DNA of 64,000 nt, taken from NCBI RefSeq assembly GCF_056746865.1, contig NZ_JBWKMP010000003.1; one strand, written 5' to 3'. Within the stretch, counting starts at the first letter, position 1. Each line of letters opens with the position of its first letter. Origin of the DNA: a plasmid. Position numbers and translations under genes: made by a program. The notes under the pieces are model-generated. The model saw nothing but the letters and a program-made list of their open reading frames with translations. It ran no database searches and was not told the DNA's origin. Positions 22,395 to 22,852 of the stretch are shown here, piece after piece.

Positions 22395-22410
22395 GTGTTA
22401 GAAATTTGAT
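22395..22410. promoter_or_regulatory. Operator-like motif TGTGTTAGAAATTTGA directly upstream of the VRR-NUC gene
   Basis: Dispersed motif family member. Confidence 0.45.
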
Positions 22411-22852
22411 GCGAAGACGCAGGCATCATAGTGCGTATTCTGAAATATCCCCGCACGCTGCTGCACTGAGAGAGTTAGAAAGAAATCCTGACTTATTAAA
22501 ACGGAATTACGAACATTACGAACAGGTTCGCGTTCTGGATTGGCTGTATCGCAACATGCGATACGTGTATGAGCACACACACTCAACACCGAACGGCGGC
22601 CTGAGAGGCAAAAGGACAGCCATTAAGATGGTGGCAGAAGGTCAGAAGAAGGGCTATCCGGACCTTTCTATTGACCTTGCTCGTGGTGGGTATCACGGAA
22701 TGCGCATTGAGATGAAGCACGGGAGAAACCGTCTGACTCCCGAACAGCTCGTCTGGATGACTCGCCTCACGGAAGCAGGCTATTACTGCTTTGAGGCGCG
22801 CAGTGCCGATGAAGCCATAAAAGCTATCACGGAATATGTAAATCTTGATTAA
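22409..22852 (+). CDS. VRR-NUC domain nuclease-like protein
   Basis: EQVRVLDWLYRN...HTPNGGLRG...KGYPDLSIDL...GMRIEMK matches the VRR-NUC (PD-(D/E)xK) pattern. Confidence 0.6.
   Translation: MRRRRHHSAYSEISPHAAALRELERNPDLLKRNYEHYEQVRVLDWLYRNMRYVYEHTHSTPNGGLRGKRTAIKMVAEGQKKGYPDLSIDLARGGYHGMRIEMKHGRNRLTPEQLVWMTRLTEAGYYCFEARSADEAIKAITEYVNLD

Follow-up and report, generated by a model that had tools for sequence, protein, structure and literature searches.

A D6-type copy of the P1 gene pmgM with a putative prophage-repressor site against its start codon

The window, a stretch of 64,000 nucleotides from plasmid contig NZ_JBWKMP010000003.1 (RefSeq assembly GCF_056746865.1), contains a stand-alone VRR-NUC nuclease gene that, by sequence comparison, is the orthologue of P1 pmgM. 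The finding was confirmed as real but ordinary: it is a D6-type copy of pmgM with a putative prophage-repressor site against the start codon, and a counterpart of this arrangement of pmgM and an adjoining operator is already present in the annotated P1 genome. Taken as a whole, the observations are probably best explained by a pmgM orthologue that encodes a nuclease similar to psNUC and would be silenced in the prophage through a C1 operator of its own.

By its gene content and similarities, the window is a D6-like phage-plasmid of E. coli, of the P1 family. It is 86% identical to phage D6 and 99.9% to the E. coli plasmid NZ_LR890273.1, and it encodes homologues of darB, ulx, pmgS, lpa, pacAB, c1, cre, ref, repL, phd/doc and hot. 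In P1 and in the window alike, the c1 gene of the P1-family phage-plasmid follows pacB. D6-like elements were matched in 119 plasmid records. The local gene order is darB-ulx-orf13, then pmgM-orf11-pmgR, then pmgS (Table 1).

Table 1. Features of the pmgM locus and of the c1 locus in the window
Feature	Position	Strand	Remarks
Stem-loop after orf13, AACAAGTTGGGTAAAT...ATTTACCCGGCTTGTT	22224..22263	+	Conserved; probable terminator of the darB-ulx-orf13 unit
Promoter-like TTGCAT-N16-TAGTAT	22304..22331	+	Hexamers and spacing conserved, spacer variable; putative function
Best sigma-70-like promoter candidate, TTGATA-N16-TATTAT	22343..22370	+	Upstream TG (extended −10)
Putative monovalent C1-type operator TGTGTTAGAAATTT	22394..22407	+	1 nt before ATG 22409; overlaps TTG 22406
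pmgM orthologue, 147-aa stand-alone VRR-NUC nuclease	22409..22852	+	Active site E-PD-ExK+Q: E35, D85, E101, K103, Q113
D6 orf11 homologue, 66 aa	22867..23067	+	Second gene of the unit; phrog_7206, E = 4e-43
pmgR homologue	23064..23375	+	Third gene; TTG 23064 overlaps the orf11 stop; phrog_9115 from residue 6 of the 23049 ORF
Intrinsic terminator ending the pmgM-orf11-pmgR unit	23384..23405	+	9-bp stem, 6 GC pairs, T-run
Next operator of the family	23449..23462	+	Overlaps −10 of the pmgS promoter candidate TTGAAA-N16-TATGTT (23427-23454)
Divergent C1 repressor homologue	31787..32824	−	Presumed trans-acting partner; located and oriented like P1 c1, after pacB
Operator-family site of c1	32841-32854		17 nt upstream of the c1 homologue

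Identity and predicted activity of PmgM

A preliminary description of this DNA had proposed a VRR-NUC nuclease gene and had held that a missing profile hit or missing catalytic residues would speak against it. The profile search that it had called for gave a match to Pfam VRR_NUC (PF08774) with 26.2 bits, above the curated cut-off of 23.8 (E = 9e-6, residues 65–133). The atypical N-terminal half of PmgM keeps the score only slightly above the cut-off; the alignment displays here a family-specific segment of the PmgM type, consisting of a basic run followed by SPHAxAL..L.KNPDL. PHROGs 2363, 824 and 5702 ('Holliday junction resolvase') also match the product, with E-values of 1e-35 to 1e-48, and the locus is named 'VRR-NUC domain-containing protein' in RefSeq. 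The NCBIfam profile search returned no family for the nuclease or for the orf11, pmgR and lpa products. The active-site residues E35, (P84)D85, E101-M-K103 and Q113 are all invariant in an alignment of 18 sequences, with homologues down to 33% identity. With both the PF08774 hit and the invariant catalytic residues present, the proposed identity therefore stands.

The protein encoded in the window is 56% identical to P1 PmgM over 136 residues (E = 1e-47), the P1 protein being longer by about 40 N-terminal and about 20 C-terminal residues. The D6 record annotates its own copy as 'similar to P1 gene pmgM'. The neighbours differ, with the order 26-pmgL-pmgM-pmgN in P1 versus darB-ulx-orf13 and orf11-pmgR in the window, but this rearrangement is no argument against orthology.

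The AlphaFold model of the window PmgM has a pLDDT of 86 and a pTM of 0.79, and is confident from residue 11 onward. The predicted fold is restriction-endonuclease-like, of the alpha/beta type, and matches those of solved VRR-NUC structures. When the model was used in a structure search, the top PDB matches were the chains of 4QBL (psNUC), with an E-value of 7e-10, a target-normalised TM-score of 0.78 and an r.m.s.d. of 1.8 Å. The 147-residue PmgM was aligned to 116 of the 122 psNUC residues. The next matches were stNUC (4QBN), saNUC (4QBO) and FAN1, the latter over 52–58 columns only. FAN1 has a helical insertion that prevents it from dimerising. psNUC is also the best solved relative by sequence (E = 1e-16). 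Like PmgM as predicted, these psNUC, stNUC and saNUC proteins consist of a single domain of about 145 residues with an E-PD-ExK motif along with a conserved glutamine, whereas proteins of the psNUC type are only about 35% identical to PmgM, to which the family-specific N-terminal segment belongs. psNUC, in which a conserved Gln accompanies the E-PD-EXK residues, resolves Holliday junctions as a dimer; stNUC and saNUC are dimeric as well, and all three cut the four-way junction symmetrically (PMC4103454). By analogy, PmgM would most likely act as a dimer cutting four-way or branched DNA.

An offensive or defensive task is unlikely, be it as an antirestriction partner of DarB and Ulx, in the degradation of host DNA, against plasmids or in superinfection exclusion. 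It could be suggested by the location of pmgM directly 3' of darB-ulx-orf13 in D6-like elements, and by VRR-NUC domains that can be toxic effectors, such as the T6SS TseV proteins (PMC9635880); a toxic enzyme would suit tight repression. However, a conserved stem-loop and separate promoter candidates divide pmgM from the dar unit, P1 pmgM is located elsewhere, between gene 26/pmgL and pmgN, and the closest characterised relative is a junction resolvase. In the P1 knock-out library (PMC9024508), 24 of the 29 knock-outs, including all the non-essential ones, had no plaquing or antirestriction defect; antirestriction was thus unchanged in the non-essential group, to which pmgM is assigned, and the virion-associated proteins listed in the text consulted do not include PmgM. 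Interference with P1 pmgM by CRISPRi gave a plating efficiency of 0.38, classed as non-essential (PMC10695390), and the table of that study cites the library (PMC9024508) for pmgM as non-essential. The roles in host takeover or against plasmids that the preliminary description had offered found no support, as in these sources the knock-out and knock-down of P1 pmgM have no clear phenotype.

The operator-like sites and their presumed repressor

The P1 operator consensus ATTGCTCTAATAAATTT gave no site with up to three mismatches in the 64-kb window, and the motif was therefore defined from the window's own repeats. The resulting pattern, TGTGTTAGAAAATT, was found at 14 sites in the window with up to two mismatches, versus 0.69 ± 0.81 expected, and none of 100 shuffles reached 14. 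The motif family comprises about 15 sites scoring more than 18 bits with a position weight matrix, versus about 9.6 bits or less for the background. With a weight matrix built without it, the pmgM site scores 18.6 bits and ranks 14th of about 128,000 positions. Three positions (18.5, 17.7 and 15.6 bits) rank between this site and the background, which begins at about 9.6 bits. The pmgM site is among the weaker members of the family, the median score of which is about 23 bits.

In the window, the sites of the family are all intergenic or at gene ends. Some directly follow stop codons or are paired as 34-bp inverted repeats; besides single sites, there are five inverted pairs, at 12491, 24694, 28379, 48269 and 53345. 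The sites adjoin homologues of repL, both C4-RNA/icd/ant modules, lpa, c1, ref, pmgS and the tRNA operon. The C4 RNAs were recognised by Rfam at 12719 and 54668, and the lpa homologue by phrog_1704. P1 has C1 operators at the same loci, namely c1/coi, lpa, c4-icd-ant, repL, ref, the ban/tRNA operon and the pmg genes; apart from ref, repL and c4, the comparison was made with the operators annotated in the P1 record. As the sites adjoin homologues of P1 C1-operator loci, the motif is read as the operator of a divergent C1. The operator-like motif reported in the preliminary description, 1–3 nt before the gene, is borne out: TGTGTTAGAAATTT ends 1 nt 5' of the ATG. The motif behaves like an operator of the C1 type, with sites that are placed at homologues of the P1 regulon and are single or inverted double, and with a window that itself codes for a C1 homologue.

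This C1 homologue matches the NCBIfam model phage_rep_C1 with a score far below the cut-off (E = 2e-5), and is 21% identical to P1 C1 over 241 residues by BLASTP (E = 1e-7). An identity of only 21% fits the changed operator sequence, ATTGCTCTAATAAATTT in P1 versus TGTGTTAGAAAATT in the window, where 9 of the 14 positions are common when the motif and the P1 consensus are compared by eye. Judged from the sequences of the sites, the operator specificity of the D6 type differs from the immunity specificity of P1. The same motif is present at the orthologous D6 sites, and the D6-type motif is absent from the P1 loci examined. No annotation of D6-like operator sites was found in the records examined, including the stretch of the D6 record that was inspected.

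At the 5' end of pmgM, the core GTTAGAAA is invariant in five lineages and GTGTTAGAAA in four, with flanks about 70% identical. Five D6-like lineages keep the operator at this end despite variation in their start codons and in the 25 nt upstream. In an Enterobacter hormaechei relative, the operator core is kept at pmgS and there is none before pmgM; operator control of pmgM is therefore not obligatory. As a separate observation, a P1-like operator look-alike with 13 of 17 matching positions precedes pmgM in the Enterobacter plasmid, the chance expectation being about 0.1 per locus. In the window, the position of the site and the P1 precedent suggest that pmgM would be controlled directly by the operator.

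It is improbable that the gene would be switched on through the motif, be it as a promoter element or as the target of an activator, for instance the late activator Lpa. The string TGtTAGAAA within the motif does resemble an extended −10, the pmgS site and the double sites overlap −10-like or −35-like hexamers, and the P1 record annotates a late promoter, LPpmgL, for pmgL-pmgM. However, the sites precede lpa, c1, C4-icd-ant, repL and ref, which in P1 are C1-repressed loci and not late operons, and several of them follow stop codons or form 34-bp inverted pairs, like bivalent P1 operators. The −22 boxes of the P1 late promoters also look different, the comparison covering four P1 boxes only (a TGAC-containing 9-mer, 4 nt 5' of the −10 hexamer). 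The one similar string, a late-promoter look-alike at 22237–22245 in the loop of the hairpin 22232–22255, is not conserved in other lineages and was rejected.

The pmgM unit and its counterparts in P1 and D6

By its layout, pmgM heads a three-gene operon, pmgM-orf11-pmgR. In D6, orf10 is annotated as 'similar to P1 pmgR' and has a 4-nt overlap with the preceding gene. The orf11 and pmgR homologues are not listed in PLSDB for records of the window lineage, the PLSDB gene table being incomplete. An Rfam search of positions 22000–23500 gave no match. The core of the stem-loop after orf13 (22232–22255) was flagged by a scan on the minus strand. All 9 aligned lineages keep the stem, the changes in it being wobble or compensating ones, and in the E. 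fergusonii type a T-run follows it. This stem-loop probably separates the darB-ulx-orf13 unit from the pmgM unit.

Two promoter candidates lie between the stem-loop and the operator. In the upstream one, GTTGCAT and AGTAGTAT are invariant in nine lineages, and AGTAGT is also found in the metagenome lineage L015. AGTAGTAT, or TTGCAT-N16-TAGTAT, was considered as a repeated late-promoter motif and rejected, with a single occurrence in the window and no enrichment of the 9-mer. The downstream candidate, with 10 of 12 matches and a predicted start near 22377, is the best of all operator-linked candidates; D6 has TTTACA-N16-TATTAT at this position. The best promoter candidates lie upstream of the pmgM operator, which is at about +17 to +30 from the predicted start and overlaps none of them. 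A repressor bound there would therefore block the path of the transcript and not cover the promoter.

In P1, pmgM (formerly orf83b, AF234172) is preceded by pmgL, and the pair is flanked by the C1 operators Op82 (O26) and Op83 (Oppp). Op82 lies over the promoters predicted for pmgL, about 60 nt ahead of this gene, and Op83 is 3' of pmgM. As in the window, there is an orthologous PmgM, a C1-type operator just upstream of the unit, and more operators before the following pmg genes. In contrast, pmgL is missing from the window, where the operator touches the pmgM start codon. The downstream geometry is the same as that of P1 OpmgRb (Op86b), a monovalent operator between the promoter −10 and the start of pmgR, at a distance of about 20 nt from the −10 and of 14 nt from the ATG, compared with 24 nt and 1 nt for the pmgM operator of the window. 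In both elements, pmgR is within the controlled unit. In P1, pmgR forms a unit with pmgS, and a second operator lies over the −35, whereas in the window pmgR shares its unit with pmgM and orf11, and a separate operator, the P1 counterpart of which is OpmgRa/b (Op86) before pmgR-pmgS, is found at pmgS.

The D6 gene orf12 (MF356679) is the same gene in the same context, with 92% amino acid identity over residues 8–147, and has the same operator core in the same place. It is annotated from a TTG 36 nt 5' of the operator, inside the −10 of the promoter candidate, and has no ATG after the operator. As the annotated TTG lies upstream, the D6 operator is within the annotated orf12 coding sequence. 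In two other lineages, as in D6, pmgM has canonical in-frame starts upstream only, and the operator is thus inside the annotated coding sequence.

It is very unlikely that the operator acts mainly elsewhere, through repressor looping or by stopping read-through from darB, with an incidental contact to the start codon. The nearest sites of the family are 1.0 and 2.3 kb away (23449 and 24694), the site is 3' of every promoter candidate, and the Enterobacter lineage is without a pmgM site. However, a repressor at 22394–22407 would stand in the way of all transcription that reaches the pmgM coding sequence from upstream, and would therefore affect pmgM in every case. The extreme 5' position, kept in the five lineages despite their differing starts and upstream 25 nt, also argues against an incidental contact.

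Length of the gene and proposed role

The open reading frame was listed as 22406..22852 from the TTG, with an ATG at 22409, and is closed upstream by an in-frame TGA at 22379. In near-identical plasmids, the PGAP/RefSeq call is 22628–22852 only, for a product of 74 residues. This call is too short, because the N-terminal codons are under purifying selection and the shortened product loses E35. Over the 49 N-terminal codons, of which 8–49 were measured, pN is 0.056 and pS 0.83 relative to the D6 type, represented by plasmid CP043746, and the dN/dS ratio of codons 8–49 is 0.2–0.3 relative to more distant types. In a metagenomic relative with 69% identity, a 147-residue product is called from the same position, with the ATG also 3' of the operator. 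The short call, the 91- and 98-residue database clusters known for the window lineage and an ATG 22409 without Shine-Dalgarno sequence could point to a decayed or shortened remnant, with C-terminal products of 74–98 residues only, no active nuclease and a leftover operator, but this is hardly credible in view of the purifying selection, of the same start in the metagenomic relative, of the invariant catalytic E35, and Q39, sitting in the N-terminal part, and of a full-length model that folds confidently from residue 11.

In the preferred account of pmgM as a psNUC-like nuclease gene with its own C1 operator, the binding of C1, the repression, the places of the promoters, the dimeric state, the cutting of junctions and the biological role are presumed. 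In the plasmid-prophage state, C1 at the 14-bp site would block RNA polymerase coming from the promoter or promoters 25–90 bp upstream, which would keep the nuclease and pmgR silent. Upon induction, pmgM-orf11-pmgR would be expressed together with the remaining early and middle genes under C1 control, and the nuclease may trim branched intermediates of replication or recombination ahead of headful packaging. As P1 pmgM is dispensable for plaque formation, any debranching role must be redundant with host enzymes.

A more specific proposal is possible and is put forward tentatively: PmgM-type VRR-NUC proteins would resolve Holliday junctions, or debranch DNA, for the P1 family of phage-plasmids. 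A C1 roadblock at the start codon would keep the enzyme off in the plasmid state, and in the laboratory its loss would be masked by host RuvC or RusA. More speculatively, the conserved contact of the operator with the ATG would reflect a very short or leaderless transcript, the start of which is set inside the operator. A leaderless transcript from a −10 inside the operator is not supported; TAGAAA is without the conserved final T, and the spacing from −10 to ATG is 4 nt, not about 7.

The understanding of P1-family immunity and of VRR-NUC enzymes is unchanged by the finding, the value of which lies mainly in annotation. The RefSeq calls of pmgM in the window lineage, with 74 residues, are missing one catalytic residue. 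D6-like phage-plasmids occur commonly in E. coli, Shigella and Salmonella, and their putative immunity operators now have (T)AATGTGTTAGAAAATTAAT as a working consensus, with about 15 sites mapped. A P1 gene labelled 'putative morphogenetic function' is given a concrete biochemical function, that of a predicted junction-specific nuclease.

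The pmgM gene and its product

The open frame of pmgM, the orthologue of P1 pmgM, encodes a product of 147 residues. Its match to the Pfam VRR_NUC profile, at 26.2 bits, is barely above the curated cut-off of 23.8. PHROG families match it as well, one of which carries the label Holliday junction resolvase. Its identity to P1 PmgM is 56% (E 1e-47), and the counterpart in Escherichia phage D6 is recorded as 'similar to P1 gene pmgM'. Among solved structures, the sole significant sequence match was 4QBL (E 1e-16), which is psNUC of Psychrobacter. This protein forms dimers, which bind four-way junctions and cut them symmetrically, and its E-PD-EXK motif is stabilised by a conserved glutamine (Pennell et al., PMC4103454). 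Residues E35, D85, E101, K103, and Q113 do not vary across 18 aligned homologues, in which identity falls as low as 33%. The AlphaFold model (mean pLDDT 86) superimposes onto 4QBL with a target-normalised TM of 0.78 and an r.m.s.d. of 1.8 Å; the next-best matches to the model are the two other stand-alone VRR-NUC structures and FAN1. Within the VRR-NUC proteins, PmgM falls into the stand-alone group, of which psNUC is typical. The VRR-NUC identity proposed in the preliminary description is upheld, since both the profile match and all the catalytic residues are present.

The RefSeq model in near-identical plasmids consists of the last 74 codons alone (22628-22852), and database clusters of 91 and 98 residues were found for this lineage. 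All these models are devoid of E35. Purifying selection acts on codons 8-49, with pN 0.056 and pS 0.83 against a D6-type plasmid and dN/dS of 0.2-0.3 against two more distant lineages, so that the N-terminal part must be translated. The absence of a Shine-Dalgarno sequence before ATG 22409 probably accounts for the short gene calls. A metagenomic relative, 69% identical, has a 147-residue call with the ATG at the same position. D6 and two other lineages lack an ATG 3' of the motif; their genes are annotated from a TTG or ATG situated 12-36 nt 5' of it, which places the motif inside the annotated coding sequence. The annotated start of D6 orf12, the pmgM counterpart, is doubtful; no canonical in-frame start codon is found 3' of the operator in D6. 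The annotated TTG sits within the -10 hexamer of the conserved promoter candidate (L001, the D6 record MF356679, 3957-4006). As read from the PLSDB gene table, which is known to be incomplete, the orf11 homologue has no CDS in the listed RefSeq models of three near-identical plasmids (L002, L011, L012), and that of pmgR is missing in two of the three records.

Putative operator family and transcription unit

An operator-like motif abutting the nuclease start had also been described, and it is confirmed as TGTGTTAGAAATTT at 22394-22407, its last base one base 5' of the ATG. With up to two mismatches, TGTGTTAGAAAATT occurs at 14 sites in 64 kb for 0.69 expected, a number reached in none of 100 shuffles. 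Scored with a weight matrix built without it, the pmgM site obtains 18.6 bits and ranks 14 among about 128,000 positions, separated from the background (from about 9.6 bits) by three positions at 18.5, 17.7, and 15.6 bits. It is among the weaker members of the family. The two weaker positions (17.7 and 15.6 bits) are 24841-24860, intergenic and near the tRNA-operon promoter, and 57389-57408, within an ORF, which may be a chance match. Family sites are confined to non-coding DNA and the ends of genes; at five loci, a site is accompanied by a second, inverted copy 20 bp away.

Features of the pmgM locus and of the operator family (window positions)
Feature	Position	Strand	Context
Conserved stem-loop	22224-22263		after orf13; T-run behind stem in some lineages
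TTGCAT-N16-TAGTAT	22304-22331		hexamers conserved, spacer variable
Promoter candidate TTGATA-N16-TATTAT	22343-22370		TG ahead; 10/12 positions match
pmgM open frame	TTG 22406 / ATG 22409 to stop 22850-22852	+	in-frame TGA 22379 closes frame upstream
orf11 homologue	22867-23067		downstream of pmgM
pmgR homologue	23064-23375		start overlaps orf11 stop
Strong intrinsic terminator	23384-23405		end of pmgM-orf11-pmgR
c1 homologue	31787-32824	-	
Operator-family site	11289		before repL
Operator-family site	12491		before first C4-RNA/icd/ant module (Rfam C4 at 12719)
Operator-family site	22394		before pmgM
Operator-family site	23449		before pmgS
Operator-family site	24694		3' of pmgS, ahead of good promoter facing tRNA genes
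Operator-family sites	28379/28399		before Lpa homologue (phrog_1704)
Operator-family site	32841		17 nt before c1 homologue
Operator-family site	34237		after recombinase gene
Operator-family sites	48269/48289		between Ppp-like phosphatase gene and next gene
Operator-family sites	53345/53365		before ref
Operator-family site	53996		before second C4-RNA/icd/ant module (Rfam C4 at 54668)
Immunity-I-like modules	12598-13782; 54545-55966		
C4 antisense RNAs	12719-12804; 54668-54755		Rfam RF01695
c4 a1/b1 target element	12598-12650		first module
isrK-like sRNA match	54545-54623		second module

The complete VRR-NUC gene opens a unit of three genes, and one site of the operator family lies between its coding sequence and all promoter candidates upstream. 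The stem-loop after orf13 is probably the terminator of darB-ulx-orf13, as a T-run comes next in some lineages. The candidate with the TATTAT hexamer is the best near any operator of the window, and its D6 counterpart is TTTACA-N16-TATTAT. The operator starts 24 nt 3' of this -10, at roughly +17 to +30 of the predicted transcript. A precedent for the order promoter, operator, start is OpmgRb of P1, located 20 nt after the PpmgR -10 and 14 nt before the pmgR ATG, and the downstream geometry of the c1 site of the window is similar to that of the pmgM site. The pmgS gene has its own promoter candidate, the -10 of which overlaps the next operator. An out-of-frame mini-ORF of seven codons (22378-22401; ATG 22378, stop TAG 22399-22401) begins 3' of the predicted transcript start and ends within the operator.

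The intergenic region was aligned in nine sequences from four D6-like sublineages (from E. coli, Shigella, Salmonella, and E. fergusonii), where it shares only 68-75% identity with the window. All nine retain the core GTGTTAGAAA unchanged, and the 25 nt 5' of it cannot be aligned. In a fifth, metagenomic lineage, AATGTTAGAAAAAT is separated from the ATG by a single C. In D6, the motif is found at the orthologous pmgM, pmgS, and post-pmgS positions. A more distant Enterobacter hormaechei plasmid has the core at pmgS and after pmgS and none before pmgM. With the site in five lineages and absent from this relative, the operator-pmgM link is therefore old and common, and not obligatory. Right after the orf13 stop of the Enterobacter plasmid (L014, NZ_CP085744.1, 2244-2260), AGTGGTCTAATATATTG has 13 of the 17 bases of the P1 operator consensus; with about 0.1 match per locus expected by chance, it may mean nothing.

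P1 has C1 operators at ref (Op2), c4-icd-ant (Op51), and kilA-repL (Op53). Others are annotated in the P1 record at ban/tRNA (Op72), 26/pmgL (Op82), after pmgM (Op83), pmgR-pmgS (Op86a,b), pmgT (Op88), lpa (Op94), and c1/coi (Op99a-e). The P1 consensus is absent from the window and the D6-type motif from the P1 loci; the two have 9 of 14 positions in common, plus an A/T-rich 3' half. The c1 homologue occupies the position of P1 c1, yet is only 21% identical to P1 C1, which fits an altered DNA specificity. From the site positions, the P1 operator loci, and the diverged C1, the motif is read as the putative operator of a D6-type C1 repressor.

The phage-plasmid and its relatives

The gene content of the window is that of a P1-family phage-plasmid, including a DarB-like protein (2283 residues), Ulx, PmgS, Lpa, PacA/B, a tyrosine recombinase, Ref, RepL, Phd/Doc, a homologue of Hot (theta-subunit), tRNAs, and two C4-antisense-RNA immunity modules. 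Over the 3.4 kb around pmgM, identity to D6 is 86%; with seven non-mobilizable E. coli and E. marmotae plasmids (about 90 kb each, e.g. NZ_LR890273.1), it rises to 99.1-99.9%. Each immunity-I-like module has a C4 RNA, an icd-like gene, and an Ant/Rha-type anti-repressor, and stretches of the two share 77-93% identity (repeat families D2, D5, D8, D9). The minus-strand gene run at 44400-52250 contains several internal direct-repeat families (D4, D6, D7, D10, D11) of 36-119 nt with 64-94% identity, which match repeated ead/Ea22-like and adjoining small genes and resemble segments of paralogous genes. The tRNA-Asn, tRNA-Thr, and tRNA-Ser of D6 (L001 7519-8224) are annotated on the strand opposite to the ARAGORN result, probably an error in the record; in the window, these three and tRNA-Met are on the plus strand, downstream of a bivalent operator and promoter (24694-24756).

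Proposed role and comparison with P1

Transcription into pmgM-orf11-pmgR would be blocked by C1 at 22394-22407 as long as the element is a plasmid prophage, and the unit would be expressed upon induction. By analogy with psNUC, PmgM would work in dimeric form, with four-way or branched DNA as its substrate; such an activity would be of use to a phage making concatemers and packaging by headful. It is sensible that a structure-specific nuclease be kept silent in the low-copy plasmid state; VRR-NUC domains can be toxic once delivered into cells (PMC9635880). CRISPRi of P1 pmgM gave a plating efficiency of 0.38 ± 0.21 and the gene was classed as non-essential (Piya et al., PMC10695390), a table in that article citing the P1 knock-out library for this assignment. 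The role of PmgM must therefore be redundant or conditional. Of the 29 knock-outs in that library, 24 showed no defect in plaquing or antirestriction, and the text consulted does not name PmgM among the virion-associated proteins (PMC9024508).

The operator could act mainly on something other than pmgM, but a repressor bound there would still block entry into the gene, whatever its main target. The darB-ulx neighbourhood raises the possibility of an antirestriction or offensive factor; however, the pmgM unit is separate from that of darB-ulx, the gene is located elsewhere in P1, and antirestriction was unchanged in all non-essential P1 knock-outs (PMC9024508), the group to which pmgM is assigned (PMC10695390). 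It is unlikely that the motif is a promoter or activator site, because lpa, c1, and the immunity modules have family sites in front of them. A decayed, truncated gene is contradicted by the selection on the N-terminal part and the invariant E35.

The pmgL-pmgM region of P1, C1 operators included, is orthologous to the pmgM locus under C1 control proposed here and would work alike. In contrast to P1, the operator sequence is of D6-type specificity and touches the start codon directly, pmgL is lost, and pmgM is joined with pmgR into one unit. The analysis provides a consensus and a map for D6-type operators, corrections to the gene models, and, for a P1 gene still labelled 'putative morphogenetic function', a function that can be tested.
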